Source: Candidatus Eiseniibacteriota bacterium (GTDB lineage Bacteria > Eisenbacteria > RBG-16-71-46). Taken from it: a stretch of DNA of 64,000 nt. Position 1 is the first letter of the stretch. Each line of letters begins with the position of its first letter. The notes under the pieces were generated by a model. The model saw only the letters and a program-made list of their open reading frames with translations, was not told the origin of the DNA and did no database searches. The stretch is from NCBI GenBank assembly GCA_963717935.1, contig CAVQXP010000004.1:256001-320000 (forward strand), written 5' to 3'. The position numbers and the translations under genes were made by a program. Positions 1,631 to 22,221 of this stretch are shown here, one piece after another.

Positions 1631-2278
1631 CTACCGGTAGAGCGACTTGAGCTTCCCCCAGGTCGTCAGCGATGTCGATACGACGGACGACGAACTGACA
1701 CGAAGCACTCCAAGGATCTCCTTCCCCTGCTGGCCGTCCGGCACCTGGACGATGTCCACCTGCACCGGGAAGCGAACCTCCTGGCCACCGAGTGTCATGG
1801 TGATGTCGTAGCACGACGTACCCGCGTAGTCCTGCGGATAGCCAACCATGCACCAAAGCTGCCAGCCGGTCAGCGCCGGAGTGTTCCGGAACACTTCCTC
1901 CGGGCTCAGCATGGTCAGCAGGGTGTCGTTTTCGACATCCACGCAGCCAACCGCCTCATCCGGAAGAAGATCCGAGTCGAGTTCGGCTGACGACGATCCC
2001 ATCATGAAGCTGTACGGTCCCCACGGGATGTACCCCGAGGTCAAGACCCCGGTAACCTGCGCACCGTTGATCTCGGAACCGGCGATCGGCGCCGATCCGG
2101 TGTTCACGATCAGACCGCACGAGAGGCTGATGCCGCCACCGATCGCGATCGGGTCCAGGTAAGCCTTCACCAGGACGTGGTTGATGACGACCACGTCGAG
2201 GCGATCCGCAGCCTCCGCAGCGCCCCCTGCCAGCGTGCAGACCACGAACAGCGCTCCAGCCCAGATGTTCCGCGTCAT
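1631..2278 (-). CDS. Secreted hypothetical protein with C-terminal TTWGKLKSLYR motif
   Basis: GGGAGG RBS, signal peptide MTRNIWAGALFVVCTLAGGAAEA, Ser/Thr linker before the terminal motif; visibly less GC-skewed codon usage. Confidence 0.8.
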   Translation of the reverse strand: MTRNIWAGALFVVCTLAGGAAEAADRLDVVVINHVLVKAYLDPIAIGGGISLSCGLIVNTGSAPIAGSEINGAQVTGVLTSGYIPWGPYSFMMGSSSAELDSDLLPDEAVGCVDVENDTLLTMLSPEEVFRNTPALTGWQLWCMVGYPQDYAGTSCYDITMTLGGQEVRFPVQVDIVQVPDGQQGKEILGVLRVSSSSVVSTSLTTWGKLKSLYR

Positions 2279-2613
2279 GGACAGGCCCCTCCCCCGGTTC
2301 TCCCTGCCCGGTCCGACCGTGACATGCACATCGCCAAGCGCAGTCCTCCCGAAGAGACCGGTCCGCGCTCGGTGAGGCAATGCAGGGTCGTCCTTGAGCC
2401 GGGAAAGCGCGGCCGAAACAGCAGGCGGGGGATCAGCACTCCCAGGGACCCAGGACGCCGTGCTCAGATGACCCTACGCCTTGACCTCGGACTGGTCCAT
2501 GCAAGTCTTCGTTGGAGGCTCAGGGCCGGGCCGGTTGCACGCGGGTCGCGTCCCGCCTCGCCAGAGCGGGGCCTGCCTGCCTCAGGGTCGTCCACCCGCG
2601 GTGCTGGAGCCGC

Positions 2614-3453
2614 TCATCGCGCCCCACGGCGCCCGGGCCGCGGCGGCGCCCCTCGCGCGACGCGCTCCAGCGCGGCGCTGATCCCGCGCAGCGTGTCCCC
2701 GCCCGAGCGGTGCCCTACCGCGAGCAGGACCGCGACGGCCCGCTCCAGCGCCTTCGCACCCGGCTTCGGCAATGCCAGCGTCTCCAGCACCCCCAGCACC
2801 GGCTCCGCGTAGAAGCCCGCCTGCGCGGCGTCGAGCATCTGCGCCGCGAGGCGCGTGGTGCGGGACGTGCCCCGCTCGAGCTCCGCGCCCAGCCGCTCGC
2901 GCAGGGCGGCCGCGGCGCCCGATGCCTCGCGCGCCGCGTCGAGCCCGGCCAGCACGCCCACGAGCACGTCGTCCCCGGAGGGCGTGAGCCCCTCGCCCAA
3001 CCCGACCAGCGTGGCGAGGCCCCGGACCTCGCCACCCGCCCGGAAGCGCTCGAGCGCGGCGGCGAGCGCGGGCTCGAAGGATGGGGCCGTCGGCTGTGCC
3101 GCCGCACCCCGCGCGAGCGTCCGCAGCCCGGCGGCGGGCAGCGCGCGCAACCGGCGCCGCAGCCGCAGGTCCACGACCTCGAGCCCCGCCAGCTCGATCC
3201 TCAGCGCCCCCGCCTCGACCACGCCGTCCGCGACGCGCACCGGCGCACCCTCGGCGATGCGCCCGAGGTCGCGCCGGGTGAGCGGGACGGCGACGGACCA
3301 GGGATGCAGGGGCGACTTCGCGGGCAGCAGGGCCACCAGCGGACCATCGTCGAGCAGCAGGTTGACCGCCCGGGCGTGGACCGAGACGACGAAGCCGCGC
3401 CGGTCGCCGATCAGCGCTTCGGCGGCGAAGGGTCCGGCGCGGCGGGCGCTCAT
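2614..3453 (-). CDS. DUF2877 protein (YlbF/AllH-like oxamate carbamoyltransferase subunit)
   Basis: Signature LVGLGEGLTPSGDDVLVG and VGHRSGGDTLRG; context with FdrA and DUF1116. Confidence 0.85.
   Translation of the reverse strand: MSARRAGPFAAEALIGDRRGFVVSVHARAVNLLLDDGPLVALLPAKSPLHPWSVAVPLTRRDLGRIAEGAPVRVADGVVEAGALRIELAGLEVVDLRLRRRLRALPAAGLRTLARGAAAQPTAPSFEPALAAALERFRAGGEVRGLATLVGLGEGLTPSGDDVLVGVLAGLDAAREASGAAAALRERLGAELERGTSRTTRLAAQMLDAAQAGFYAEPVLGVLETLALPKPGAKALERAVAVLLAVGHRSGGDTLRGISAALERVARGAPPRPGRRGAR
2692..2746. repeat. 55-bp direct repeat, copy 2 (inside the DUF2877 CDS)
   Basis: 54/55 identical to 1576-1630. Confidence 0.95.
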
Positions 3454-3467
3454 CGCTTCGGCGCGGC

Positions 3468-4376
3468 TCAGCGCTTCGGCTTGCGCTTCGCCGCGGCTCC
3501 CCGGGCCGGCGTGGGCCTGCGGCCGTGCAGTTGCGGCGCCAACGCCCCGGCGATGTCGCCGTACTTCGTGAGCTTGCACTTCGCCTTGATCTTCATGAGC
3601 TGCTCGTAGCGCTTGTCGTCCACGAACGCCACGATGCGCGAGATCGAGGACTCGCCGTCCACGAAGCGCCAGGGGAAGCAGCCGACCTCCACGCGCTGGT
3701 TCAGCAGCAGGTCGATGTCCCCGCCCAGGCACTCGGCGTGGATGATGCCCTTGTTGAACATCTCGAGGTGCATCAACTGGTACTTGCTGTCGTCGAAGAA
3801 CTCGGCCAGCGGCTTGCCGTACTTGGCCCGGAAGTGCTGGTCGGCCTGGCGCGCCTGGCGGGGCATCCAGTCGCGGATGATGGTGTTCATCGGGTGGTCG
3901 GCGCTGCCGCAATCCACGCCGATCCAGCGCAGCTTCTTCTTCTTGGCCCACTGGGCGAACTCCCGGTCCGGCCCCGGGTGCTTGACCATGTAGGCGATCT
4001 CGTCGGCCGTGGGCTGGTCCCAGCCGTGGTGGTGGAAGCCGGTGTGGATGATGAGGATGTCGCCGGTGCGGACCTCGACGCGCTCCTCGACCATCTTCGA
4101 GGTGTAGACGTCGTAGGCGCCGCACACGTCCGAGAGGTCCACGATCGCCGCGTCGTGCACCAGGAAGTCCAGGTCGAGCGAGGCGATGTCCTTGCCCGGC
4201 GTGTAGAAGTGGATCTCGCCGTCGAGGTGCGTGCCGAGGTGGTTCGAGTGCGTGAGCAACTGGCCGTTGGCGCCGTTGGGCGCGAGCCGCTTGAAGTACT
4301 TGATCTGCAGCGGCTCGTAGGTCGGCCAGGCCGGCGTGCCGATGCCGAGGGGGATGGTGAGGTCGATGAGCTTCAT
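3468..4376 (-). CDS. Cyclase-family metal-dependent amidohydrolase (kynurenine formamidase/isatin hydrolase fold)
   Basis: MKLIDLTIPL start with GGAGGAG RBS; HLGTHLD (HxGTHxD) metal motif; GDILIIHTG. Confidence 0.88.
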   Translation of the reverse strand: MKLIDLTIPLGIGTPAWPTYEPLQIKYFKRLAPNGANGQLLTHSNHLGTHLDGEIHFYTPGKDIASLDLDFLVHDAAIVDLSDVCGAYDVYTSKMVEERVEVRTGDILIIHTGFHHHGWDQPTADEIAYMVKHPGPDREFAQWAKKKKLRWIGVDCGSADHPMNTIIRDWMPRQARQADQHFRAKYGKPLAEFFDDSKYQLMHLEMFNKGIIHAECLGGDIDLLLNQRVEVGCFPWRFVDGESSISRIVAFVDDKRYEQLMKIKAKCKLTKYGDIAGALAPQLHGRRPTPARGAAAKRKPKR

Positions 4377-4402
4377 GGTCTCCTCCGAAGCGTGACGGCG
4401 CG

Positions 4403-5854
4403 TCAGGCCCTGGCGGCCGGCGCGCCGAGCGACTCTGCGAACGCGAGCAGCGCCTGGCGGAAGCACGCGAGCGGCGGCTTCACCAGGCCGGCGCCCACCA
4501 TGCCGATGCCGGGCTGCTTGTGCGCGATGCCGGTGTTGACGACCGGCACGACGCCGCTCTCGACCACCTTGAGCAGGTCGATGCCGGTCGCCGTGCCGCG
4601 GAAATCGAGCGCCGGGATCTTGTAGACCGGGTGCTCGGCGAGCGTGATGTCGTACATGCGGCGCGTGTAGCCGAGCGCCTGCGCGGCGCTGCCGCCCACG
4701 AACTGGACGATGGCGGGCGCGGCGGCCATGGCCATGCCCCCGAGCCCGGCCGTCTCGGTGATGACCGAGTCGCCGATGTCGGGCGCGGCGTCCGCGGCGC
4801 TGAAGCCCGGCAGGTAGAGCCCGTCCACCATGGGCGCGGGGGCCGTGAACCAGCGCCCGGGAAGCCCCGACACCTGGATGCCGAAGTCGGTCCCGTTGCG
4901 CGCCATGACGCTGACCATGGCCGAGAGCGGGATGCCGGCCGCCGGGTCGAGCGAGCACTTGCTCGCCGCCATGGAGAGATTCAGGAAGAAGTGGTCGTTG
5001 CCGTCGAGGAAGCGCAGGACCGCCGCGATGTCGTCGGCGCCGGCCTTGATCCTCACCAGGTGCGGCGCCAGCGCACGGATGAGCAGCGAGGTGGCCGCGC
5101 GGTTGCGGTTGTGCACCTCGTCGCCCATCTGGAGCGCCTGGGCGATGACGTTGCGCAGGTCGAGCGGCCCGTGCGAGGCCAGCGCCTCGCGCAGCGCAGG
5201 GGCCAGCACCTGCTCCATCCAGCGCAGGCGCACGAGGACCTCGTCGTCGTAGGCGCCGTAGCGCAGCACCTTGCCGAGCCCCTCGTTGAGCGTGGAGAAG
5301 GCGCGGTTGCCGAAGGCCGTGTTCTCGAGAATCCACACCGGCATCGAGGCGGTGACCACGCCGGCCATCGGCCCCACCGTGGCGTGGTGGTGGCAGGGCG
5401 CGAACGCCACCTTGCCCGAGGCCGCGAGCCGCGCGGCCTCCTCGGGCGTCTTCGCCAGCCCTTCGTAGACCAGGCCGCCCATCACCGCGCCGCGCGTCGG
5501 CCCGCTCATGCGCTCCCACTCGACCGGCGGGCCGGCGTGGAGCACGAGGTCCCGGCGCATGCCGGGGACGGCGTCGAGCGCCGTGCCGATGCCGACGATG
5601 ACCGGCCGGGCCGCGAGCAGCCGCTCGACCGACTGGCGGGTCGCCGCGGCGATGTCGGCGCGCACCGCGCCGTCCGCGCCGAGGCAGGCGTCGAGCGCGG
5701 CGAGCACCGCGGGGTCGCCGCCCGCGGGGGGCCGCCAGTCCACGTCCACCGCGCTGCCGCCCGCGCGGCGCAGGTCGGTCGCGAAGGAGGCCAGGCCGAC
5801 ATTCACGACCGACAGCTCCGCGCCGAAGAGCGCGAGCACCTGCTCGACGTTCAT
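4403..5854 (-). CDS. DUF1116 protein (YlbE/AllG-like) with an N-terminal FdrA-C-like segment
   Basis: LHAGPP, GPMAGVVTASMPV, LNEGLGKVLRYGA, MGDEVHNRN, DIGDSVITETAGLGG, NTGIAHKQPGIG; ATGA overlap with the fdrA stop. Confidence 0.9.
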   Translation of the reverse strand: MNVEQVLALFGAELSVVNVGLASFATDLRRAGGSAVDVDWRPPAGGDPAVLAALDACLGADGAVRADIAAATRQSVERLLAARPVIVGIGTALDAVPGMRRDLVLHAGPPVEWERMSGPTRGAVMGGLVYEGLAKTPEEAARLAASGKVAFAPCHHHATVGPMAGVVTASMPVWILENTAFGNRAFSTLNEGLGKVLRYGAYDDEVLVRLRWMEQVLAPALREALASHGPLDLRNVIAQALQMGDEVHNRNRAATSLLIRALAPHLVRIKAGADDIAAVLRFLDGNDHFFLNLSMAASKCSLDPAAGIPLSAMVSVMARNGTDFGIQVSGLPGRWFTAPAPMVDGLYLPGFSAADAAPDIGDSVITETAGLGGMAMAAAPAIVQFVGGSAAQALGYTRRMYDITLAEHPVYKIPALDFRGTATGIDLLKVVESGVVPVVNTGIAHKQPGIGMVGAGLVKPPLACFRQALLAFAESLGAPAARA

Positions 5855-7386
5855 CGCCCGGCCCCCCCCAGCACGGCGGCGGCGAACAGGGCCGCGCGCC
5901 GGTTGTCCGTTTCGACGGTCACTCCGGCGTCCGCGAGCCGGCGCACCTGCGCGTCGTAGCCCTGCGGGTCCTCGCCCGTGCCCGTGACCGAGGCGACCGC
6001 CACCAGTTCGCGCCCCTGCGCCCGGCGCCGCGCCTGGTCCACGCCCGCGGCCAGCACGCCCGCCGGGTCCGGGTGCGAGCCGTAGCCGATCACGCAGTCG
6101 AACAGCAGCAGCCCGGCCGCGGGATCGGCCGACTCGACCGCGAGCCGCTCGTTGCGCAGCACCGGCTCGATCATCGGGTGCGGCCGGCCCCGCGTGAACA
6201 CGTCGTCGCCCAGGTCGAGCAGCACGTGGCCCGGCACCGGCTCGACGCCGTCCACCCGCAGCGCGCCCTGCTTGTGCAGGTTCGAGCGCACCTCGAGCCC
6301 GGCGCGCGCGAGCAGGGCGAGCGCCTCCTGCCCGGTCGTGCCACCGCAGAACAGCGCCTTGAGCGCCGCGCCCGGCCGCAGGAGCGCCGCGGCCGACGCG
6401 ACGCACGACGCATCCGCGACCGGCGGCGGCGGCGTGAAGGCGAGACCGCTCAGCCGGCAGGCCAGCTCCGCCGCGCCGGCCAGCGAATCGGCGAAGACGA
6501 TCCCGTGGGCCGGGTCCTCCGGGCGCGGGGCGTCGCCCACGAAGTGGATCACGCAGGGCTTCGGCGTCGCCGCCAGCGCCGCGACCACCTGTTCCGCCAC
6601 CGCCGGAGCCGGCGGCTTCGAGATCACGACGATCACCTTCGTCTCCGGGTCGGCCGCGAGCGCCTCGATGCCCAGCCGCATCATGAGCCCGCCCACCGCG
6701 GCCGAGAGGTCGCGTCCGCCCGTGCCGATGGCCTGCGAGACGCCACCGCCGAGACGATGGACCAGGCTCGAGACCTCCTGGATGCCCGTGCCCGCCGCGC
6801 CCACGATACCGATGGGACCGCGCCGCACGGCGTTGGCGAAGGCGAGCGGCCGGCCGTCGAGGATGGCGGTGCCGCAGTCGGGGCCCATCATCAGCAGCCC
6901 GCGCGCCGCCGCCTCGCGCTTGAGCGCGACCTCGTCCTCGAGCGTCACGTTGTCCGAGAAGAGCATCACGTGCCGGCCCAGCGCAAGCGCGCGCCGCGCC
7001 TCGCGCGCGGCGTGCTCGCCGGGCACCGAGATGAGGACGAGGTTGGCCTCCGGGTGGGCCCGCACGGCCGCCGCGAGCGACGCCGGACGCGTCTCCTCGT
7101 CCGCGCCCGCGTCGGGCCGGGCCTGCAGCAACCGCTCCAGCTCCGCCTCGACCGCCGCCGGCGAGCCGGCCGCGCCCTTCACCGCGATGAGCAGGTCGTT
7201 GGGCGTGGCCACCGCGAGCGCGGGCCCGCCGTAGCCCTGCGCGCCGAGCAGGTCGCGGTTCTGCGGCGTGCCCATGGCGACCACCGCGTCCTCGACGCCC
7301 GCGAGGCCCTTCAGGGCCTGCGAGACCCGCATCAGGAGCACGGAGTCGTGATACGAGTCCCTGCGGACCAGCACGAAGGCAGCCAC
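5851..7386 (-). CDS. fdrA: FdrA (AllF-like), succinyl-CoA synthetase alpha-like CoA-binding protein
   Basis: YHDSVLLM, AMGTPQN, LISVPGEHA, MMGPDCGT, GTGIQEV, GTGGRDLS, LDLGDD...GRPHPMIEP. Confidence 0.9.
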   Translation of the reverse strand: MAAFVLVRRDSYHDSVLLMRVSQALKGLAGVEDAVVAMGTPQNRDLLGAQGYGGPALAVATPNDLLIAVKGAAGSPAAVEAELERLLQARPDAGADEETRPASLAAAVRAHPEANLVLISVPGEHAAREARRALALGRHVMLFSDNVTLEDEVALKREAAARGLLMMGPDCGTAILDGRPLAFANAVRRGPIGIVGAAGTGIQEVSSLVHRLGGGVSQAIGTGGRDLSAAVGGLMMRLGIEALAADPETKVIVVISKPPAPAVAEQVVAALAATPKPCVIHFVGDAPRPEDPAHGIVFADSLAGAAELACRLSGLAFTPPPPVADASCVASAAALLRPGAALKALFCGGTTGQEALALLARAGLEVRSNLHKQGALRVDGVEPVPGHVLLDLGDDVFTRGRPHPMIEPVLRNERLAVESADPAAGLLLFDCVIGYGSHPDPAGVLAAGVDQARRRAQGRELVAVASVTGTGEDPQGYDAQVRRLADAGVTVETDNRRAALFAAAVLGGAGR

Positions 7387-7396
7387 GTCTCCCCCG

Positions 7397-10270
7397 CTAT
7401 CCCCTGGCTCCGCCCGCCGCGGTCTTCGCCGGCTGCGTCCCGCCCTCCGCCGCGCGCTTGAGCGTCAGGAAGACGCGCTCGGGATCCAGCGGCAGCTCGA
7501 AGAACTCCACGCCGGTGGCGTTCGAGACCGCGTTGCCCACCGCGCCCGGCACCGAGATCATCGAGTGCTCGGCCACGCCGCGCGCGCCGTAGGGTCCCTG
7601 CGGATGCGGCGTCTCGACGAAGAACTGCTGCATCACCGCCGGGATGTCCTTCGCGGTCGGGATCTTGTAGTCCGTGAACGAATTGTTGAGCAGCCGGCCG
7701 TTCTGGAACACGAACTTCTCCATCACCGCCGAGCCCAGCCCCTGCACCACGCCGCCGATCACCTGCATGCGGCACTGCTGCAGGTTCAGCACCTTGCCCG
7801 CGTCGAAGGCCGAGACGAGCTTGAGCACCTGGATGTGACCGGTGTCGGTGTCCACCTCGAGCTCGACGGCGTGCGCACCGTAGGTCCAGTTGAGCGCCGG
7901 CAGTCCCTGGCCCGTCTGCGGGTCGAGGTTCGTGAGGCCGGTCGCGATGTAGCGGCCCTTGCCGATCACCGGCCCGCCGATGCTGCTGCCATCCGGGTAG
8001 GTGTAGCCCAGCACGAGCTGGCTGTAGTCGAGCGTGCGGGCGGGCTTGCCCTTCACCCAGACCTTGCCGTCGCCGCACTCGATCTGCTCGGGCGGGGCAT
8101 GGAGCGCCTGCCCGGCGACGCTGCGGATCTGGTCGAGGCACTCCTTCGCCGCCTGGATGACGGCGTTCCCGCCCATCACCGAGAAGCGGCTCGCCACCGT
8201 CTGCCAGTCGTAGGGCGTGTAGTCGGTGTCGCTGTCCCACGGCACGCGCACCTTCTCGAGCGGGAGCCGCAGCTCGTCCGCCGCGATCTGCGCGAGCGCG
8301 GTGTAGGTGCCCTGGCCGTAGTCCACGCCGCTCACCAGCAGGTTCGCCGAGCCGTCGCCGTTGAACAGGATGGTGACCGCGCACGAGGTGTAGGTCGGCA
8401 TGGCGGGCGCCTTGTGCAGCATCGCCACGCCCTTCGCCCGCACCTTGCCCGAGCCCGGCGCGACCGGTCTGGCGGCGCGCACCTTCGGATTCCAGCCGAT
8501 CGCCTCGGTGACGAGCCGCAGGCACTCCTCGGGCCGGCCGTGGCCCGGGGTGAACTCCTCGCCGGTGATGGTGGTCTCGCCCACGCGCAGCAGGTTCTTC
8601 CGGCGGAACTCGACCGGATCCAGGCCCAGCGCGAGCGCCACCATGTCCATGTTCCGCTCGATGCCCCACAGCACCTCGAGGTGGCCGAAGCCGCGGTAGG
8701 CGGTGCCGTGGATCTTGTTGGTGTAGACCACCAGCGAGTCGAGCTTGCAGTTCGGGATCACGTACGGCCCGGCGCCGGAGTAGGCCGCCGCGCGCCCGAC
8801 GTTGACGCCGTAGTCGGCGAAGGCGCCGGCATCCCACAGGTAGGTGACGTCGAGCGCGGTGATGCGCCCGTCCTTCGTGACCCCGGTCTTGATGGTGCTC
8901 TGCAGTCCCTGGCGCGAGGGCAGGGTGTTGAACTCCTCCTCGCGCGTGGCGCTGATCTTCACCGGACGCCCGCCCGCCGCCTTCGACAGGCAGTAGACCA
9001 GCGGCTCGAGGTGGATGCCCGCCTTGCCGCCGAAGCCGCCGCCGACGTAGGGCACCCTCACGCGCACCTTGCCCGGCGCCATGCCGAACGTGCGGCAGAA
9101 CAGCGTCCGCACGGTGAACGGCGACTGGGCCGAGGTGATGATCTCGACCTCGCCGTCGGCGCGCGCGGTGGCGATGGCCACGTGCGTCTCCATCGGCACG
9201 TGCTGCACCGGCGGGTTCTGGAAGTGGAACTCGAAGACGCGGTCCGCCCGGGCCATGCCCTGCTCGACGTCGCCCTTGCGGATCTTCTGGTGGTGGGCGA
9301 TGTTGCGGCCCGGCTCCGGGAAGAACACGCCCTTCATCCACGAGTAGTCCGCCAGGCCCGGATGCACCTGCGGCGCGCCGTCCTTCAGCGCCGCGTGCAC
9401 GTCGAGCACCGGTTCCAGCACCTCGTACTCGACCTCGATCGCCAGCGTGGCGAGCTTGGCCTGGATCCAGGTATCGGCCGCCACCGCCGCGACGGCCTCG
9501 CCCTGGTGGTGCACCACGCCGCGGGCGAGGATGTCCTTGTCCTCCATGTAGAGCCCGAGCTTGTAGGGCAGGTCGGCGCCGGTGAGCACCGCCTTCACCC
9601 CCGGCATCGCCTTCGCCTTCGACACGTCGATGCGCCGGATGCGCGCCGAGGCATGCGGCGAGGTCAGGATGCGGCCGTGCAGCATCCCGTCCAGCGTCAG
9701 GTCGTGCACGAACATCGCCGAGCCCGTCACCTTCGCCGCCGCGTCCACGCGGTTGACCTCGCCGCCCACGTAGGGCGCCGTGGGCGCGGGCTTGGCGCGG
9801 TAGCCGCCCTTCGCCACGGCCTCGACCGCGTCGATGATCGGCTCGTAGCCGGTGCAGCGGCAGTAGTTCCCCGAGAGCGCCTCGACGATCTCGTCGCGGG
9901 TCGGCTTCGGGTTCCGCTTCAGCAGCGCGCGGGCGGAGGCGAGCATGCCCGGGGTGCAGAAGCCGCACTGGATGGCGCCGTGGTCCACGAACGCCTGCTG
10001 CAGCACGGAGAGCGTGCCGGGCTCGCCGTTCTCGGCCTCCGCGGTCTCGATCACCGCGCCGTCGGCCTCGACCGCGAACACCAGGCAGGAATTCACCGGC
10101 TTGCCGTTCAGGATCACGGTGCACAGTCCGCACTCGCCGATGTAGCAGCCCGACTTCACGCTGTGCTGGTGCAGGTCCTCCGTCAGCAGCTGGTGCAGCG
10201 TCCGGTTCGCCGGGACCTCGAGGGTGGAGGTCTCGCCGTTCACCGTCAGGGTGATCGGGTAGAGACTCAT
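7397..10270 (-). CDS. Xanthine dehydrogenase-family molybdoenzyme, (2Fe-2S) subunit fused to the Mo-binding large subunit
   Basis: N-terminal GCYIGECGLC and QCGFCTPG...CRCTGY; GGGFGGK, AYRGFG, YGQGTYT, GARGVAE. Confidence 0.92.
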   Translation of the reverse strand: MSLYPITLTVNGETSTLEVPANRTLHQLLTEDLHQHSVKSGCYIGECGLCTVILNGKPVNSCLVFAVEADGAVIETAEAENGEPGTLSVLQQAFVDHGAIQCGFCTPGMLASARALLKRNPKPTRDEIVEALSGNYCRCTGYEPIIDAVEAVAKGGYRAKPAPTAPYVGGEVNRVDAAAKVTGSAMFVHDLTLDGMLHGRILTSPHASARIRRIDVSKAKAMPGVKAVLTGADLPYKLGLYMEDKDILARGVVHHQGEAVAAVAADTWIQAKLATLAIEVEYEVLEPVLDVHAALKDGAPQVHPGLADYSWMKGVFFPEPGRNIAHHQKIRKGDVEQGMARADRVFEFHFQNPPVQHVPMETHVAIATARADGEVEIITSAQSPFTVRTLFCRTFGMAPGKVRVRVPYVGGGFGGKAGIHLEPLVYCLSKAAGGRPVKISATREEEFNTLPSRQGLQSTIKTGVTKDGRITALDVTYLWDAGAFADYGVNVGRAAAYSGAGPYVIPNCKLDSLVVYTNKIHGTAYRGFGHLEVLWGIERNMDMVALALGLDPVEFRRKNLLRVGETTITGEEFTPGHGRPEECLRLVTEAIGWNPKVRAARPVAPGSGKVRAKGVAMLHKAPAMPTYTSCAVTILFNGDGSANLLVSGVDYGQGTYTALAQIAADELRLPLEKVRVPWDSDTDYTPYDWQTVASRFSVMGGNAVIQAAKECLDQIRSVAGQALHAPPEQIECGDGKVWVKGKPARTLDYSQLVLGYTYPDGSSIGGPVIGKGRYIATGLTNLDPQTGQGLPALNWTYGAHAVELEVDTDTGHIQVLKLVSAFDAGKVLNLQQCRMQVIGGVVQGLGSAVMEKFVFQNGRLLNNSFTDYKIPTAKDIPAVMQQFFVETPHPQGPYGARGVAEHSMISVPGAVGNAVSNATGVEFFELPLDPERVFLTLKRAAEGGTQPAKTAAGGARG

Positions 10271-11121
10271 GACGCCCTCCCCGCGCCGAGCAGCCGGCGC
10301 GCGAGCCGGCGGCACAGCAGCGCGGTCATCTCGCGCCGATACTCGGCCGAGGCCCGCACGTCGTCGATCGGCTGGATGTGCTCCACGGCCAGCGCCGCGA
10401 GGCGCTCGCCGACGTCCTTCGGGTCCGACTTGGGCCCGACGCCCGTGAGCGCCGGCACCAGCGCCGGCCGCACGGCGCACGAACCGATCGCCACGCGCAG
10501 CGTGCCCGCCGCCGGGTCGAAGGCCGCCGCCGAGTTCACGATCGCCAGGTCGTGCCCGCAGGTGCGCTTGATCTTGTCGAAGGCGCTCGCGAGCCCCTTC
10601 GCCGGCTTCGGCACGATCACCGCCGTCACCAGCTCCCCGGGAGCGAGCGCGGTCTTCTTCACGCCCAGGAAGAAGTCCGAGAGCGGCGCCTCCCGCGTCC
10701 CCTGAGAACCCACGACGCGCAGCCGCCCGTCCAGCACGAGCAGCGGCGGGGCGGTGTCCATGCAGGGCGAGGCGTTCGAGAGGTTCCCCGCGACCGTGGC
10801 CCGCCAGCGGATCTGCAGCGAGCCGATCGCCTCCGCCCCCTCCGCGAGCGCCGTGAAGACCTCGCGGATGCGGGCGTCCTCGGCGACGTCCTGCACCCGC
10901 ACGCAGGCGCCGATCTCCAGGTCGCCCGCGGGCGTCCAGCGGACGGTCCCCAGCTCGGGGATGCGCTTGATGTCCACCAGCACGGTGGGTTGCGGACCGC
11001 CGCGCAGCGCGATCATCAGGTCGGTCCCGCCGGCCAGGATCCTCGCGCCTCCGCCGGCCCCGGCCAGCAGCGCGGTGGCCTCGGCCACCGTGCCCGGTCT
11101 CTCGTAGCGGAAGCCACTCAT
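10267..11121 (-). CDS. XDH/CoxM-family FAD-binding subunit
   Basis: ILAGGTDL, QIRWRATVAGNLSNASP, DDVRASAEYRR; ATGA overlap with the next gene. Confidence 0.92.
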   Translation of the reverse strand: MSGFRYERPGTVAEATALLAGAGGGARILAGGTDLMIALRGGPQPTVLVDIKRIPELGTVRWTPAGDLEIGACVRVQDVAEDARIREVFTALAEGAEAIGSLQIRWRATVAGNLSNASPCMDTAPPLLVLDGRLRVVGSQGTREAPLSDFFLGVKKTALAPGELVTAVIVPKPAKGLASAFDKIKRTCGHDLAIVNSAAAFDPAAGTLRVAIGSCAVRPALVPALTGVGPKSDPKDVGERLAALAVEHIQPIDDVRASAEYRREMTALLCRRLARRLLGAGRAS

Positions 11122-11203
11122 GGTCTCTTCTCCCCTGCGGCCTGCGACCCGGAGCGCCGGCGCTCCCGCGGTCGCGAGCGCCGCGGGGCACCGTGGCCTC
11201 CGG

Positions 11204-11542
11204 CTAGACGGCGGTGAAAACCAGCCCGGTGATGTCCTTGCCGTTGATCTCGCGCACCTTGCCGATGTGCGCCCGCACGCGCGCACCGGTCTTCGGCTCG
11301 GCGATCTCCAGCCGGCCGGTCGCACGCACGCCCATGTCCAGCTCGACGATGCCCAGCGTGACGTAGAGTTGAGCGTAGTCCAGCGGCAGCGCGTAGACGC
11401 GCGTCCAGGTCAGCAGCTTGCCCTCGCCCTCGACCGGCACCGGCTCGAACTGCGTGCCACCGCACGAGGGGCAGTAGAAGTGCGTCGGATACGAGAGCTT
11501 GCCGCACTTCTTGCACTTCGCGGCTTCGACGTCCATCGCCAT
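11204..11542 (-). CDS. DUF35 Zn-ribbon/OB-fold protein (ChsH2/BbsA-like thiolase partner)
   Basis: CKKC...CPSC, then GKLLTWT and GIVELD; directly downstream of the thiolase. Confidence 0.88.
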   Translation of the reverse strand: MAMDVEAAKCKKCGKLSYPTHFYCPSCGGTQFEPVPVEGEGKLLTWTRVYALPLDYAQLYVTLGIVELDMGVRATGRLEIAEPKTGARVRAHIGKVREINGKDITGLVFTAV

Positions 11543-11543
11543 G

Positions 11544-12731
11544 TCACACCCCCCGCTTCAGGACGGTGGCGACGACGTTGTTGCCGAAACCGCCGAAGTT
11601 CACGGCGAAACCGTGCTTCGGCTGGTTCGGCACCTGGTAGTCACCCGCCTCGCCGCGCAGCTGCAGCGTGAGCTCCACGATCTGCGACACGCCGGTGTTG
11701 CCCACGGGATGCCCGCGGGACTTGAGCCCCCCCGACGGATTGATGGGCAGCTTCCCGCCGATCTGCGTCTCGCCCCGCTCGAGCGCCTTGTGGCCCTCGC
11801 CCTTCTTGAAGAAGCCGGCCTCCTCGCTCTCGACGATCTCGAGGATGGTGAAGGCGTCGTGCAGCTCGGCGACGTGGATGTCCTTCGGGGCCAGCTTCGC
11901 CATGGCGAACGCCCGCTCCGCCGCGAGCCGCACCGCGGTCAGCTCGGTCGGGTCGGGCCGGTCCTGCACCGCCTGCGAGTCGGTCGCCTGGCCCATGCCG
12001 GCGATCAGCACCGGCGTCTTCTTGAACTCCTTCGCCATCGCGGCCGGGGCCAGCAGCACCGCCGAGGAGCCGTCGCTCACCGGGCAGCAGTCGAAGAACC
12101 GCAGCGGCTCGGCGATCCACGGGTTGTTGTTGAGCGCGTCCGGCCCGGTCAGGATGCCCTCCATCGTGACCGGGATGCGCAGGTGGGCCTTCTTGTTCTT
12201 CGCGCCGTTGAGGTGGTTCTTGATCGCCACCATCGCCAGGTGCCGGGACTCGACCCCGTAGCGCTCCATGTACAGGCGCGTGAACATCCCCGCCAGCGCG
12301 GGCAGCGTCACGCCGTAGACGTACTCGGCGTAGCGGTGCGAGAGGAACGAGACGAACTCGGTCGCCTCGAAGTTGTTGACCTCCTGCATGCGCTCGCCGC
12401 CGCACACCAGCACGAGGTCGCAGTACCCCGAGGCGACGGAGTGGACGCCGTGCTTGATGGCCGAGGCGCCCGAGGCCGGGCCGTTCTCGATGGTCTCGGA
12501 GACCGTGTGCGGGTACAGGTTCATCCGGTCCACCAGCCCGCTGGACAGGCCGGCCATGCGGTTGTTGCGCGGCGCGCCCATGTTGGCGACGTAGACCGCG
12601 TCGATCTTCCGTTCGCCGACGCCGGCGTCCACGAGGGCGTCGTTCGACGCCTCGCACATCATCTTGAGCAGGCTCCATTGCGCCCGCCCGAACTGGGTCG
12701 AGCCCACGCCGACGATGGCCACGTCCCTCAT
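11544..12731 (-). CDS. Thiolase-fold protein (SCP-x/archaeal type) lacking the canonical nucleophilic Cys
   Basis: VAIVGVGST, DCCPVSDG, ELHDAF, NPSGGLKSRGHPVG; ENGPASG where E-x-A-C-A-S-G is expected. Confidence 0.88.
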   Translation of the reverse strand: MRDVAIVGVGSTQFGRAQWSLLKMMCEASNDALVDAGVGERKIDAVYVANMGAPRNNRMAGLSSGLVDRMNLYPHTVSETIENGPASGASAIKHGVHSVASGYCDLVLVCGGERMQEVNNFEATEFVSFLSHRYAEYVYGVTLPALAGMFTRLYMERYGVESRHLAMVAIKNHLNGAKNKKAHLRIPVTMEGILTGPDALNNNPWIAEPLRFFDCCPVSDGSSAVLLAPAAMAKEFKKTPVLIAGMGQATDSQAVQDRPDPTELTAVRLAAERAFAMAKLAPKDIHVAELHDAFTILEIVESEEAGFFKKGEGHKALERGETQIGGKLPINPSGGLKSRGHPVGNTGVSQIVELTLQLRGEAGDYQVPNQPKHGFAVNFGGFGNNVVATVLKRGV

Positions 12732-13477
12732 ATGCGGGCCTCCAGCGTGTGCTCGATCTGCGTCAGCATCACGCGCAGGTCCGGCTCGCGCAGCGGGTAG
12801 GACTTCGCCAGCAGCTCGGCGGAGACCGGGCGCGTGCCCGTGACCAGCCGCGACTTGGCCTTGAAGTAGGTGTCGCGCGTCAGCACCCAGGCGGGCGCGC
12901 CGCCCAGCTCGTGCTGCACCTCGAACTTCTTGTCGAGCGGGTACTCGATCATCCAGCGCCGGTGGCCGATCGGGCTCTCGGCCACGATCCAGACCTCGTC
13001 CTGGCCCAGGTACTCGATGTGGTGCTCCATCTTCGAGGCGAAGAGGTGCGAGCCCACGCGCAGGCCGCGCTTGAGGGTCAGCGTGTGGAACGAGACGCCG
13101 TGCTTCTCGTCCCAGAGCCGGCCGTTCACGATGCCGGCCAGCACGCCGTCGATCACGCCGACCAGGCAGTACTCGTCGCGCACGCGGTGCGTCTTCCAGC
13201 CCAGCAACTCGGCGAACAGGCGGGCCGAGACGATGTCGTAGTAGTCGCGATTCAGCCAGGAGAGCGGCTGGATGACCTTGAGCATCGTGTCCACCTCGTC
13301 CACCGAGGCCTGGCGCACGACCATGGTCTCGCCACTCGCCAGCAGGACGGCCTTGGGGGGATAAGGGGCCATGGGCAGCGCGGGTGGGCGCAGCATGGCC
13401 TCGAGTTCGTCGATCATGCGCTCCTCCTCGGAGGTGAGGTATTCGCCAGCATCCCAGTCGTAGACAGGGGGGCTCAT
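12728..13477 (-). CDS. Hypothetical protein, probable GNAT-fold N-acyltransferase
   Basis: Clean codon usage, ATGA-coupled to the thiolase; 'LASGETMVVRQA...LVGVIDGVLAG...RGLRVGSHLF' resembles GNAT topology; alternative start at 13417. Confidence 0.6.
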   Translation of the reverse strand: MSPPVYDWDAGEYLTSEEERMIDELEAMLRPPALPMAPYPPKAVLLASGETMVVRQASVDEVDTMLKVIQPLSWLNRDYYDIVSARLFAELLGWKTHRVRDEYCLVGVIDGVLAGIVNGRLWDEKHGVSFHTLTLKRGLRVGSHLFASKMEHHIEYLGQDEVWIVAESPIGHRRWMIEYPLDKKFEVQHELGGAPAWVLTRDTYFKAKSRLVTGTRPVSAELLAKSYPLREPDLRVMLTQIEHTLEARI

Positions 13478-13636
13478 CGAAGGCTCCAGGCTGAAACGGG
13501 TCGCCCGCCCAGAGGGGACCGGGAGGGCGGAAGAGAACCGGATAACACTTCCACGTCGCGGCCGCAACGACAAGGGGACTTTCGGACCGTCCCGGGGCCC
13601 CCATCGGGCGGCTGTGGCCGGCGCGACTCCGCAGGA

Positions 13637-14533
13637 TCAGCGCAGGAACAACACCACGACCCCCGCCACCGCCACCAGCGCGCCGGCCAGGGTCCGCAGG
13701 GTCAGGCGCTCCCCGTGGAAGCGGGACGAGAGCAGCAGGGTGAGCACCGGGTAGATGGCGGTGATGGAGGCGGCCACGCCGGCCTCGATGTACTTGAGCG
13801 CGGTGAGCGACAGGGTCACGCCGAGGAACGGCCCGAAGAAGGCGCCGCCCACCATGAAGGCAGAGCCCGCTCGGTCGCGCAGCGCGTCGAACGAGCGGCG
13901 CACGTCGCGCTGCGCCGCCGCCAGCAGCCAGATGCCGACCGCGGCCGCCACGATGCGGACCACGGTCGCCGAGAGCGGGTCGAGCCCCGTGCGCAGGGCC
14001 AGCTTCGAGAGGACGTAGCCGCCCGCCTGCCCCACCGCGGCCAGCACGCCCGCCACCACCCCCACCAGGATCGAGCCCTCGATGTGAGCCTGCGCCGGGT
14101 GCTCCTGCTCCCAGATGACCCAGGCGATGCCACCCAGCGTGAGCGCCATGCCGAGCAGGATGAGCGGCCCGGGATGCTCGCCCAGCAGCGGCCAGGCGAG
14201 GAGTGCGGTGAAGATGGGCGCGGTCGAGGTGACGAGCGCCGCCCGGCCGGGGCCGAGGATGACGAGCGAGCGGAAGTAGTAGGTGTCGCCGAATACGAAG
14301 CCCACCAGCCCGCTCACCGCGAGCAACCCGACCGCCCACGGGGTCGCCCACACGGGCCAGGGGGAGCCGCGCAGGAAGAACAGCGCGGTGCACAGGAGCC
14401 CGGCGGCCACGGTGATGCGCAGCCGGTTGAGCACGACCGAGCCCATGCGCTGGCCGGCGGCCGCGAAGAAATTGGAGCCGGCCGCCCAGCACGTGGCGGT
14501 GCCGAGGGCGGCGAACTCGCCGGCGAATCTCAC
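13637..14533 (-). CDS. DMT/EamA-family transporter
   Basis: About 10 hydrophobic segments in two EamA-like halves. Confidence 0.88.
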   Translation of the reverse strand: MRFAGEFAALGTATCWAAGSNFFAAAGQRMGSVVLNRLRITVAAGLLCTALFFLRGSPWPVWATPWAVGLLAVSGLVGFVFGDTYYFRSLVILGPGRAALVTSTAPIFTALLAWPLLGEHPGPLILLGMALTLGGIAWVIWEQEHPAQAHIEGSILVGVVAGVLAAVGQAGGYVLSKLALRTGLDPLSATVVRIVAAAVGIWLLAAAQRDVRRSFDALRDRAGSAFMVGGAFFGPFLGVTLSLTALKYIEAGVAASITAIYPVLTLLLSSRFHGERLTLRTLAGALVAVAGVVVLFLR

Positions 14534-14594: not shown

Positions 14595-14978
14595 TCAAGA
14601 GCGCGGCAGGCCCGCGGACGCGGACTTCACCTCGAGGATGTGGTTCTTCTCGTCCACCAGCACGACGCGCGGCTTGAAGCCGGTCACCTCCGCCTCATCG
14701 AGGGAGGCGTAGGCCGCCACGATCAGACGGTCGCCGGCATTCGCGAGCCGCGCGGCGGCGCCCATCACGCAGATGGTGCCCGAGCCGCGCGGAGCCTTCA
14801 CGACGTAGGTCGAAAAGCGCTGGCCGGTGTTGACGTTGTAGATGTCCACGCGCTCGTACTCGTGCAGGTCGGCCGCCTCGAGCAACGTCTCGTCCACCGC
14901 GCAGGAGCCCTCGTAGTGCAGCTCGGTCTGCGTGACCGTGACGCGATGGAGCTTGGACTTGAGGAGCGTGCGCAACAT
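14595..14978 (-). CDS. panD: Aspartate 1-decarboxylase
   Basis: [17 protein letters not shown] self-cleavage site, [17 protein letters not shown]. Confidence 0.95.
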
Positions 14979-15153
14979 GGGAATCCGCCTCCGTTGGGGA
15001 GGACAAAGGTACCCGAGACCGGGCTTCGGACGCCAACCGGCCACGCCGTGGCGCGATTCAGGCGTGCGGGGGACCGCGTCCGCCCTGGAGAAGCGGGGGG
15101 CCCACGGAGCGCGAGACCCCGTGGACCCCCCGAACCCTCTGCGGCGGGCCCGG

Positions 15154-20419: not shown

Positions 20420-22221
20420 CTATCTTCGCCCCAGCAGCGTGAGCAGCCCCGTCGTGAGCCAGGGCACGTAGGTGATCAGCAGCACGCCGAAGCCCAGGAT
20501 CGCCAGGATCGGGAGCGTGGCGCGCGCGATCTCGAACACCGGACGCTTGAAGCGGTAGGCCGCCAGGAACAGGTTGAAGCCCACGGGCGGCGTCAGGTAG
20601 CCGAGTTCGAGATTGGCCACGAAGATGATGCCCAGGTGCACGGGGTTGATCTCGAACGCCCGCGCGATCGGCACGATCAGCGGCACCACGACCACGGTCG
20701 CGGAGAAGATGTCCATCAGGCAGCCGACCACGAGCAGGAACAGGTTGAGCCCCAGCAGGAACACCGCCGCCGAGTGCACGTGCCCGCGGGTCCACTCGAC
20801 CAGGTGCGCCGGCACCTGCGCGTCCACCAGTAGGAACTCAGCCCCATGGCCGCGCCGAGGATGACGAGCACGCCGCCGCACCAGCACCACGCTCTCGCTC
20901 AACACCCGCGGCACGTCGCGCCGGAGCCCCAGGTCGCGGTGCACGAAGGTCTGCGTCGCGAACGCGTAGAGTGCGGTGAGCGCCGCGGCCTCGACCAGCG
21001 TGGCGAAGCCGCCGAAGATCGCGACCAGCACGATCACCGGCATGAGCAGCTCCCACTTGGCCTCGTTCACCGCGCCGAGCACCTCGCGCCAGGTGAAGGA
21101 CGTGCGGCGCGCCTGGCCGGTCACCCCCTCGCGGATGCCCCAGGCCATGACCAGGCCGAGCAGGAGCAGCCCGGGCAGCAGACCGCCGATGAACAGGTCC
21201 TCGATGGCGACCTGCGCCACGATGCCGTAGAGGATGAGCGGGAGGGCCGGCGGGAACAGCAGCCCGAGCGAGCCGCACCCCGTGATCAGGCCGAGCGAGA
21301 AGCGTTCACGGTATCGCTCTTCCGAGAGCGCCTTCAGCAGCAGCGCGCCCAGCGCCAGGATGGTCACTCCCGAGCCCCCGGTGAAGGCGGTGAAGAACGC
21401 GCAGACCACCGCCACCACCACCGCCGTTCCCCCCGGCAGCCAGCCGACCAGGGCGCGGAAGACGCGCAGCAACCGGCTCGAAGCGTGGCCCTCGGCCAGC
21501 AGGTACCCCGCGAGCGTGAACAGCGGGATCGCGGCCAGCGTCGGTGAGACGGCGAGCCGGTAGGTCTCGGCCGGCACGGCCGCGATCGGCACGGCGTCCC
21601 GCATGAAGAAGACCAGCGCGACGCCCCCGAGCAGCACGAAGAGCGGACCACCCACCGCGGTCGCCAGCAGCACCAGCGCGAGGCCGGGCCAGAAGGACAC
21701 GTCCGCCAGCAGTTCGGGGCGCTGCCCCACCGCCAGGCCGACCGCGATGCCGAGAACCGCGACCAGGCGTCCGGGCCAGCGGGGCGCCGCGAGCCACGCC
21801 ACCCGCAGCGCGATCAGTGCGAACGCGACCGGCAGCACCAGCTGCGCCATCCACACCCGCACGCCGAGCGCGAGGACGGCGCCCGCGCCGCGCTCGATCA
21901 CGACCATGTCCCAGCTTGCGCGGGCGAGCAGGGTCGAGACCGCCGCCGCCACCGCGGCCGAGAAGATCGCCGCGGCGCGGCGCCACGGCCCGTCAGGGAT
22001 GAAGGCGCCGGTCGCCAGGGACAGCAGCCGGCGCTCGCGCGCGGCGAGGGCCGCGCCGAGGAAGCCCACCCACAGCGTGAGGTGCGGACGAACGTCCCCG
22101 AGCCGGGAACGCCGATCTTGAACAGCGCCCGCGAGACGATCTCAGCGAGCGGCAGCAGCACCATCAGCACCAGCGCCGCGTTGGTGATGCCCCGCTCGAG
22201 GCGGCCGGGGAGGTCCTTCAG
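20420..22221 (-). CDS. dctM: Fused TRAP transporter DctQ-DctM permease (frameshift ~22085, compensating shifts ~20830-20880)
   Basis: AIPLFTLAG, FTGGSGVTILALG, GSLGLLFPP, NLELGYLTPPVGFNLF; N-terminal DctQ part in another frame; start codon uncertain. Confidence 0.85.

Follow-up and report, generated by a model that had tools for sequence, protein, structure and literature searches.

A conserved gene cluster of uncultured bacteria that probably breaks down a nucleobase-like ring without oxygen

Introduction

A 64-kb stretch of DNA from a Candidatus Eiseniibacteriota genome (contig CAVQXP010000004.1, positions 256,001 to 320,000; hereafter the window, with a base composition of ~72% G+C) carries an operon of ten genes, all on the minus strand and running from 14533 to 2614, which probably serves to break down a nucleobase-like nitrogen ring without oxygen. 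Nine of the ten make up a core: the genes for an unnamed protein that we call X, a thiolase-like protein, a DUF35 protein, the FAD subunit and the fused iron-sulphur and molybdopterin (FeS-Mo) subunit of a xanthine dehydrogenase (XDH)-family molybdoenzyme, three subunits resembling FdrA/AllF, AllG and AllH of Escherichia coli, and a cyclase-family hydrolase. The evidence strongly supports treating the nine, from X to AllH, as a single functional unit, conserved among bacteria that are uncultured and mostly anaerobic. The unit falls into two parts. Module 1, an autonomous trio with translational coupling, encodes X, the thiolase-like protein and DUF35, which probably form a stoichiometric complex with DUF35 as its scaffold; module 2 holds the XDH, FdrA, AllG, cyclase and AllH genes.

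The first function for the FdrA/DUF1116/DUF2877 protein class was assigned only in 2024 (PMC11326118). According to that report, purified E. coli AllFGH interconverts oxamate and carbamoyl phosphate with oxalurate, and Mg2+ is all that it requires. The cluster described here provides a second physiological context for this class, together with a partner hydrolase.

Results

Conservation of the cluster across genomes

When one genome of each GTDB species was scanned for the pattern, 207 loci were found. All locus counts below refer to the best 80 of these 207, all of them metagenome-assembled genomes (MAGs), in which neighbours were identified by tblastn and gene calling was crude. The closest relatives of the window are Candidatus Eisenbacteria MAGs, two of which (L002 and L003) encode a protein X that is 95-96% identical. 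The thiolase-like gene follows X in 75 of the 80 loci, that is in all 75 with room for it, and DUF35 follows the thiolase-like gene in 73, again every locus with room (73/73). The misses are contig ends (L014, L041, L046, L070 and L078, and for DUF35 also L040 and L067). Among the 61 loci with clean gene models, 55 have a 4-nt overlap between the end of X and the start of the thiolase-like gene, and the spacing from the thiolase-like gene to DUF35 ranges from -8 to +13 nt across loci.

Module 2 adjoins the trio in 37 of the 80 loci, from about ten phyla. Taxa with both modules are Eisenbacteria, Sumerlaeota, Chloroflexota/Anaerolineae, Acidobacteriota, Actinomycetota, Riflebacteria, Phycisphaerales, Fibrobacteraceae and some Bipolaricaulota. 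The linked loci display at least four gene orders. The order of the window recurs in L001-L013, L016-L022, L024 and L072, a divergently transcribed arrangement is found in L050, L051 and L069-L071, and looser arrangements occur in L015, L036 and L073-L078. In L079 the trio sits inside module 2, between the cyclase and AllH (FAD-FeS-Mo-FdrA-AllG-cyclase-X-thiolase-DUF35-AllH), and L080 is arranged similarly with AllH upstream. Since the arrangement is conserved across loci, it reflects more than chance. Loci L051, L069, L071, L079 and L080 encode FeS and Mo separately, which makes the FeS-Mo fusion of the window lineage-specific. The first gene of the operon, for an EamA/DMT transporter, stands beside the trio in only 5 of the 80 loci, all close relatives; this gene and the neighbouring panD are lineage-specific and lie outside the conserved core. 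The most conserved proteins of the set are the cyclase (median identity 81%) and X (median 67%). All-against-all clustering of 1068 locus open reading frames (ORFs), a coarse procedure in which the ORF caller merges genes at high GC, gave no further conserved partner beyond the families of the window. A literature search, with subscription journals and supplementary files outside its reach, found no description of the cluster or of the trio. An initial annotation, made from the sequence of the window, had proposed a candidate undescribed catabolic operon, and recurrence in 37 loci together with the literature search supports a real, conserved and undescribed cluster of catabolic type.

The same annotation had listed ten co-directional genes with their order, family labels, three ATGA overlaps and gaps, and Pfam matches and sequence reading agreed with it throughout (Table 1). 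The ATGA overlap at 12728-31 is the junction of X and the thiolase-like gene. Those at 10267-70 (FAD and FeS-Mo) and 5851-54 (FdrA and AllG) agree with the ORF end coordinates. The gaps amount to 159 nt between DMT and X, 1 nt between the thiolase-like gene and DUF35, 82 nt between DUF35 and the FAD gene, 26 nt between AllG and the cyclase, and 14 nt between the cyclase and AllH. The cyclase starts at an ATG at 4376 with GGAGGAG just ahead of it, and AllH at an ATG at 3453. Reading frames of the thiolase-like protein and DUF35 were fixed with a GC3 frame plot.

Table 1. Genes of the operon in order of transcription, with window coordinates and the family evidence for each product.
Product	Position	Strand	Length (aa)	Evidence
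EamA/DMT transporter, first in operon	13637-14533	-	298	Pfam EamA E 6e-38
Protein X, predicted GNAT fold	12728-13477	-	249	AlphaFold model and Foldseek; outside all Pfam/NCBIfam families
SCP2/archaeal-type thiolase-like protein, Cys-less (ENGPASG, HDAF)	11544-12731	-	395	Pfam Thiolase_N, Thiolase_C_1
DUF35 protein, zinc ribbon and OB fold	11204-11542	-	112	Pfam zf-ChsH2, OB_ChsH2_C
FAD subunit, XDH-family molybdoenzyme	10267-11121	-	284	Pfam FAD_binding_5 E 3e-44, CO_deh_flav_C
Fused 2x[2Fe-2S] and molybdopterin subunit	7397-10270	-	957	Pfam Fer2, Fer2_2, Ald_Xan_dh_C, MoCoBD_1, MoCoBD_2
FdrA/AllF-like subunit	5851-7386	-	511	Pfam CoA_binding and Ligase_CoA; NCBIfam PRK06091 498 bits (cut-off 433)
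AllG/DUF1116-like subunit	4403-5854	-	483	Pfam AllG E 3e-99
Cyclase-family (PF04199) metal-dependent hydrolase, between AllG and AllH	3468-4376	-	302	Pfam E 1.8e-29
AllH/DUF2877-like subunit	2614-3453	-	279	Pfam AllH E 2.2e-20

Two loci carry additional genes. An Actinomycetota variant, L015, has a YahJ-like amidohydrolase (12695-13789) between DUF35 and FdrA and has no FAD or FeS-Mo genes next to it; the upstream region holds a GntR regulator, a luciferase-like monooxygenase, two further amidohydrolases and, at a distance, an XDH-like gene. L077 carries an ABC transporter of the Bmp/PnrA type.

Protein X and the thiolase-fold trio

Judged by its structural model, X represents a compact, very conserved and unnamed GNAT-fold family. 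It matched no Pfam or NCBIfam family. The Pfam model Acetyltransf_1 scored E 0.099, under the cut-off, and when 25 members of the X family were compared with this model 12 matched at E up to 10, the best at 0.0035 and all below the gathering score. A profile of X had 0 matches among PDB sequences at E up to 10. The AlphaFold (AF2) model (pLDDT 80, pTM 0.79) was compared with the PDB by Foldseek, and the top 50 matches listed were all GNATs (E 2e-6 to 2.5e-4, TM to target 0.5-0.64). The label 'GNAT-like' in the initial annotation is therefore borne out by the modelled fold, without membership in a Pfam family. An invariant stretch of X, R137-G-L-R140-V-G142, carries Arg in place of the expected middle Gly of Q/R-x-x-G-x-G/A, which we take to be the GNAT pyrophosphate-binding motif.

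Homologues of X are numerous. One search gave 1999 at E <= 1e-3 and another 3142, all labelled 'hypothetical' or generic, with identities of 61-96% across phyla and of 69-95% for the best 120 of the 1999, which come from many phyla. X had 216 matches among 1.84 billion representatives at 50% identity, many of them fragments, and its 90%-identity clusters include ones of 593 and 808 members; the ESM Atlas held only generic 'putative N-acetyltransferase' clusters. There was no cultured carrier among the best 120 matches of each of two homologue searches, all metagenome or MAG proteins, and no match to X among plasmids. A search for longer or fused forms of X gave two matches. One is a natural X-thiolase fusion (P0122), and the other, EamA joined to a partial X, may be a gene-calling artefact.

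The best PDB relatives of the thiolase-like protein are the archaeal thiolases 7yvy (261 bits) and 6esq (236 bits); 7pxp, 6ok1 and 5ab4 are also among the matches. Aligned to the first two, the window protein reads ENGPASG where both have EAACASG, so that Pro replaces the nucleophilic Cys, and at the acid/base site it has HDAF where 6esq has HDCF. The archaeal thiolase 7yvy also reads HDAF though it retains the nucleophile, and HDAF alone is not decisive. Pro occupies the nucleophile position in 74 of 76 relatives, the remaining two being garbled alignments, and all 25 aligned sequences keep HDAF, NFGGFG and GHPVG with its His unchanged. These alignments confirm the 'Cys-less thiolase' of the initial annotation. 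The C-C cleavage that it had included in its route is not supported as the work of a thiolase, since the loss of both catalytic cysteines is conserved and the residues of the Ltp2/Sal aldolases are gone as well. Because both cysteines are lost and the protein is nevertheless 51-96% conserved across phyla, it must act other than by thiolysis. A true thiolase was thus ruled out.

Other cysteine-free members of the superfamily have different catalytic motifs. A study of these enzymes (PMC12329534) describes SCP2 thiolases as using the Cys of HDCF together with the nucleophilic Cys, Ltp2 as using the Tyr of YDHF and Tyr344, Sal as carrying YDCY, and the Cys-less SLP of T. brucei (TbSLP, YDCF) as slowly decarboxylating malonyl-CoA. 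The window protein shares with Ltp2, Sal and TbSLP a thiolase fold minus the nucleophilic Cys and a DUF35 partner (matches 6ok1 and 5ab4), and it matches none of the four catalytic patterns. Its DUF35 is free-standing, with four invariant Cys, and Pfam found no MaoC gene for the hydratase partner; an Ltp2/Sal-type retro-aldolase was rejected on its catalytic residues (HDAF against YDHF/YDCY). A PDB entry named 'putative acyl-CoA acyltransferase', 4yzo, has Ser at the thiolase nucleophile position (DNTSGSG), as do the haloarchaeal proteins described below.

Structural modelling of the three proteins together supports a complex of X, thiolase-like protein and DUF35 in which X binds the thiolase-like protein. 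With X as the scored partner the model reached 0.79, against 0.41 for the best of three controls. In calibration, 116 of 157 solved complexes reached this mark, as did 2 of 215 mismatched pairs; the counts are rough since our own alignments were used. Model runs had at least 83% of contacts in common with a partner pLDDT of at least 82, and the predicted interface places thiolase loop 184-204 against X residues 138-147, in the invariant RGxRxG stretch (R137-G142). Since X has no sequence relative in the PDB, the score is unlikely to come from recall of a solved complex. The nearest known assembly is the archaeal complex of acetoacetyl-CoA thiolase, HMG-CoA synthase and DUF35 (6esq, 6et9), which channels an uphill step into a downhill step. 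It resembles the trio in its stand-alone DUF35, in its three tightly coupled genes and in a third subunit seated on the thiolase, a position that in the trio is predicted. The third subunit of the window is GNAT-fold and not HMG-CoA synthase, however, and its thiolase-like protein has Pro for the nucleophilic Cys and HDAF for HDCF; with that Cys replaced by Pro, no acetyl-enzyme is possible.

The molybdoenzyme

The best NCBIfam match of the FeS-Mo subunit is XdhA_XDHase, at 519 bits against a cut-off of 780. Its best PDB matches are the aldehyde oxidoreductase of D. gigas (339 bits), 4-hydroxybenzoyl-CoA reductase (315 bits) and, further down, bovine XDH (257 bits), with CoxL and quinoline oxidoreductase also ranking above xanthine dehydrogenase. 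The catalytic Glu is retained (GVAEHS aligned to GVGELP). Where XDH has GGFGGKE the window subunit reads GGGFGGKAG, with Ala for the Glu that we take to be the purine-binding residue. A xanthine dehydrogenase proper was rejected on the sub-cut-off equivalog score and this substitution. E. coli XdhD/YgfM of the reductive urate pathway was also considered as a model and set aside: it has the same architecture, the window subunit scored 354 bits with TIGR03313 against a cut-off of 1102, and the other genes of that cluster are missing.

The AllFGH-like subunits and the cyclase-family hydrolase

The three subunits belong to the same families as E. coli AllFGH and YahEFG and are likewise encoded by co-directional genes. 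Their likely chemistry is reversible carbamoyl transfer between an amide nitrogen and phosphate, following PMC11326118. They are 41/47/33% identical to AllF/AllG/AllH and 43/48/32% to YahF/YahG/YahE, two sets that are 38/45/25% identical to each other. The window subunits are thus equidistant from both (41-48% for F and G). In a tree of 23 AllG sequences, 21 cluster-linked sequences have end branches of 0.04-1.15, whereas E. coli AllG lies on one of 3.3-3.5 and YahG on one of 2.6; the tree is unrooted with only these two outgroups, whose attachment does not resolve. Identities and tree set the cluster apart from both E. coli systems and suggest a third lineage, orthologous to neither AllFGH nor YahEFG. 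A further difference is that the window has the cyclase between G and H and the molybdenum hydroxylase and trio linked to them. The initial annotation had inferred a route other than the allantoin pathway, stating that the window lacks allantoinase, ureidoglycolate dehydrogenase and carbamate kinase. Both statements stand: Pfam and tblastn with E. coli AllK, YahI and YahJ found none of these, nor urease, in the 64 kb, no other all genes lie nearby, and the AllG tree places the cluster far from E. coli AllG and YahG. In the 80 loci, too, tblastn found no carbamate kinase.

Residues 11-50 at the N-terminus of the AllG-like protein match the final ~40 residues of E. coli AllF/FdrA (43% over 35 aa; PRK06091 positions 508-547), and from this alignment a short segment has apparently moved between AllF and AllG subunits.

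The hydrolase reading of the cyclase-family protein holds, as its metal motif HxGTHxDxxxH is present in the alignment with kynurenine formamidase 4co9, just as the Mo subunit keeps its catalytic Glu. The protein is ~90 aa longer than kynurenine formamidase. The arylformamidase equivalog was rejected (TIGR03035, 43 bits against a cut-off of 223).

Related clusters in haloarchaea

Among 17 homologue records of the window cyclase, 12 are haloarchaeal, and the homologues on megaplasmids of cultured haloarchaea are 49-52% identical. In each of five haloarchaeal contexts with XDH genes that were examined, the cyclase lies beside XDH-family FeS, Mo, CoxG and FAD genes, and NCS2/SLC23 permeases and a CocE/NonD hydrolase are present as well. 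Annotated genes for XdhC, for an IclR regulator and for a dihydropyrimidinase-like amidohydrolase each occur in four of these five contexts. A sixth context, in Haloarcula sp. GH36, has amidohydrolases without XDH genes. Three clusters contain a thiolase gene followed by an OB-fold gene: Natrinema zhouii NZ_CP084883 (L085/L087), Halostagnicola larsenii NZ_CP007056 (L089/L092) and Halorussus vallis NZ_CP100002 (L091). The haloarchaeal thiolase is 43-45% identical to that of the window and is also Cys-less (ENTSASG, HDAF). In two of the three clusters a family III CoA-transferase gene lies directly upstream of it, in the position of X. Cytosine deaminase and codB (459 bits, cut-off 438) are next to the cyclase in Halostagnicola, a urease operon directly follows the OB-fold gene in Natrinema, and a haloarchaeal NCS2 permease scored 444 bits with the pbuX model (cut-off 414). 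The clusters also hold an ADH.

These megaplasmid clusters look like uncharacterised nucleobase catabolic clusters. In common with the window they have a cyclase (50% identical), FeS, Mo and FAD genes of the XDH family, and a Cys-less thiolase followed by an OB-fold/DUF35 gene; they differ in having the CoA-transferase for X, in their urease, dihydropyrimidinase-like amidohydrolase, CocE/NonD hydrolase and CoxG, in lacking FdrA/AllG/AllH, and in belonging to cultured organisms. By analogy, the haloarchaeal context, together with the additional genes of L015 and L077, points to a nucleobase-type ureide as the substrate class of the window cluster. The initial annotation had held that the substrate cannot be read from sequence; the haloarchaeal context adds a probable class.

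A homologue of the cyclase (42% identical) occurs on a Rhodococcus ruber plasmid (NZ_CP145321, L084). Its neighbours there are Rieske oxygenases, a cupin and two carbon-nitrogen hydrolases, and a DUF1116 gene lies 12 kb off; this cluster may be an aerobic relative of module 2.

Discussion

We propose that the nine genes act in four steps. The XDH-family molybdoenzyme would hydroxylate a nucleobase-like ureide ring with water and not O2, and the cyclase-family hydrolase would open the cyclic amide to an N-acyl-urea (a ureido acid). The AllFGH-like complex would then remove the carbamoyl group by phosphorolysis, giving carbamoyl phosphate and an amide, as E. coli AllFGH does with oxalurate. The trio would transfer the acyl group that is left to CoA on its GNAT subunit and convert the thioester by a reaction other than thiolysis. 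Decarboxylation on the thiolase-fold subunit is the most plausible candidate, being the simplest reaction that a cysteine-free oxyanion hole of thiolase type would support. In haloarchaea, a dicarboxylate-type CoA-transferase would replace X and urease would replace AllFGH. We judge this scheme in its entirety, from molybdenum hydroxylation through cyclase ring opening and decarbamoylation to acyl-CoA processing, to have about equal chances of being right and wrong. The interpretation of the initial annotation is supported in part, for the non-allantoin catabolic cluster and not for its C-C cleavage.

One specific version starts from a pyrimidine. The known oxidative pyrimidine pathway runs from uracil through barbiturate and ureidomalonate to urea and malonate and frees urea by hydrolysis. 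It needs a uracil dehydrogenase of the Mo type, an amidase that opens the ring and an enzyme that cleaves an N-acyl-urea, which matches the enzyme classes of the window, and ureidomalonate is oxalurate with one additional CH2, its one-carbon homologue. The known barbiturase differs in belonging to the cyanuric-acid-hydrolase family, while the window enzyme is of the cyclase family. A route from uracil or thymine through barbiturate and ureidomalonate to carbamoyl phosphate and malonamate, and on (by way of malonyl-CoA) to acetyl-CoA, CO2 and NH3, is the specific route that fits best, though we consider it doubtful. Rather unlikely is that the trio is a DUF35 machine of a new kind, in which the GNAT subunit passes an acyl group from an amide or ureide nitrogen to CoA, an uphill step drawn forward by a decarboxylation at a shared CoA site on the Cys-free thiolase fold, and which together with the AllFGH-like complex and the cyclase would constitute an O2-independent 'oxidative' pyrimidine pathway to carbamoyl phosphate and acetyl-CoA.

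Several observations weigh against the four-step scheme. N-to-S acyl transfer from a plain amide is energetically uphill, and the top 50 structural matches of X are ordinary N-acyltransferases with no decarboxylating GNAT among them. The Mo subunit appears, from its sequence matches, to lie outside every characterised subfamily. The haloarchaeal Mo subunit is only 27% identical to that of the window, so their substrates may differ, and since the NCS2 permease passes a xanthine-permease model, a purine is favoured as much as a pyrimidine. The energy-conserving sense of the decarbamoylation step is unsupported, because no carbamate kinase was found in the window or the 80 loci. Finally, 9 of the 80 loci with at least 8 kb of upstream and 9 kb of downstream sequence hold no module 2 genes, and none was seen in 34 more with shorter flanks. 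The neighbours in trio-only loci are housekeeping genes (TsaD, S9, phosphoribosyltransferases and GMP synthase, from 86 of 163 called ORFs scanned in eight loci). Nearly all of these loci are of the Bipolaricaulota type, and in most Bipolaricaulota the trio is alone; three loci of this type (L036, L050 and L051) have both modules close together. The trio need not depend on module 2, unless trio-only genomes carry module 2 elsewhere. Co-conservation of the thiolase/GNAT block with fdrA, on which the initial annotation had staked its interpretation, is thus present in several gene orders in the 37 linked loci and absent from the fully flanked nine.

The trio-only loci could mean that the cluster is two unrelated, often neighbouring units, a central-metabolic acyl-CoA trio and a separate nitrogen-heterocycle module of XDH, cyclase and AllFGH-like genes. 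The 82-nt gap between DUF35 and the FAD gene falls at the boundary that this explanation requires, and in Halorussus caseinilyticus no thiolase is annotated with the XDH genes and cyclase. We nevertheless consider two unrelated units unlikely. The modules adjoin across about ten phyla despite reshuffled order and orientation, to the point that in L079 the trio lies within module 2; haloarchaea independently combine XDH genes and a cyclase of the same subfamily with a Cys-less thiolase and DUF35; and one of the two most conserved proteins of the set, X, comes from module 1 and the other, the cyclase, from module 2.

A different chemistry would follow if the cluster were a CoA-thioester pathway for an aromatic or heteroaromatic acid, with FdrA/AllG/AllH as the acyl-CoA synthetase of older annotations, the molybdoenzyme acting on the CoA ester in the manner of 4-hydroxybenzoyl-CoA reductase or furoyl-CoA dehydrogenase, and the trio processing the ring-opened acyl-CoA as BbsAB does. 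FdrA contains the domains CoA_binding and Ligase_CoA and is recognised by the NCBIfam model 'acyl-CoA synthetase FdrA', 4-hydroxybenzoyl-CoA reductase is the second-best PDB match of the Mo subunit, and the thiolase-like and DUF35 proteins weakly match BbsB and BbsA. XdhD-type enzymes can, moreover, run reductively, according to a preprint (bioRxiv 10.1101/2025.05.19.654654). However, the only characterised member of the class, purified E. coli AllFGH, is a transcarbamylase assayed without CoA or ATP, the thiolase-like protein is incapable of thiolysis, and the haloarchaeal context is one of nucleobase transport, cytosine deaminase and urease. We regard a CoA-thioester pathway as distinctly improbable. 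Least probable by far is a plain oxamate carbamoyltransferase for oxalurate in the allantoin branch, with the remaining all genes elsewhere in the genome. Its three subunit families are indeed those of AllFGH by Pfam and NCBIfam, but the identities to AllF/G/H are no higher than those to YahF/G/E, E. coli AllG and YahG stand on long branches (3.3 and 2.6) outside the tight cluster-linked group, the window has no allantoinase or AllC/D/E, carbamate kinase is missing from the window and the loci alike, and the cyclase gene is constantly found between AllG and AllH.

Should oxygen-independent ring breakdown by the nine-gene unit prove true, genes for this process would be present in phyla that dominate anoxic sediments and digesters. 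If the Cys-free DUF35 machine and the pyrimidine route were also correct, abundant uncultured anaerobes (Anaerolineae, Bipolaricaulota, Eisenbacteria and Sumerlaeota) would conserve the energy of both the ureide and the amide bond. X is present in thousands of metagenome copies, yet has no name, Pfam family or solved relative. Because the haloarchaea with analogous clusters are in culture, the question is open to experiment.

Other features of the window

An Rfam scan of the window gave zero matches at gathering score, so no riboswitch offers a clue to the ligand. A sigma-70 promoter scan found 0 promoters, and a terminator scan found 2 sites on the wrong strand against 2.8 expected. Downstream of AllH, Pfam and NCBIfam recognised nothing: the ~1 kb from 1577 to 2613 contains no convincing gene, and a 249-aa ORF there (1631-2380, minus strand) had no Pfam or NCBIfam match and was not chosen by the GC3 filter.

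On the other side of the operon, panD (aspartate 1-decarboxylase; 14595-15044, minus strand; TIGR00223 154 bits, cut-off 106) precedes the DMT gene by 62 nt and, among the 80 loci, is found at the matching place only in L004 and L005. Beta-alanine is a product of the reductive pyrimidine pathway, and the link of panD to pyrimidine breakdown may or may not be coincidence. About 6 kb upstream of the operon, on the same strand, a TRAP transporter (20420-24244, minus strand) comprises a fused DctQ-DctM, DctP and a TAtT T-component. Further away, on the plus strand, a single long ORF at 45371-48118 has N-terminal 4Fe-4S/CCG domains and a C-terminal AlkZ-like DNA glycosylase domain and may be two genes merged by ORF calling. 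Just before it, 44290-45339 (plus strand) encodes a deoxyhypusine synthase-family protein (PF01916, E 4e-67) in this bacterial genome.

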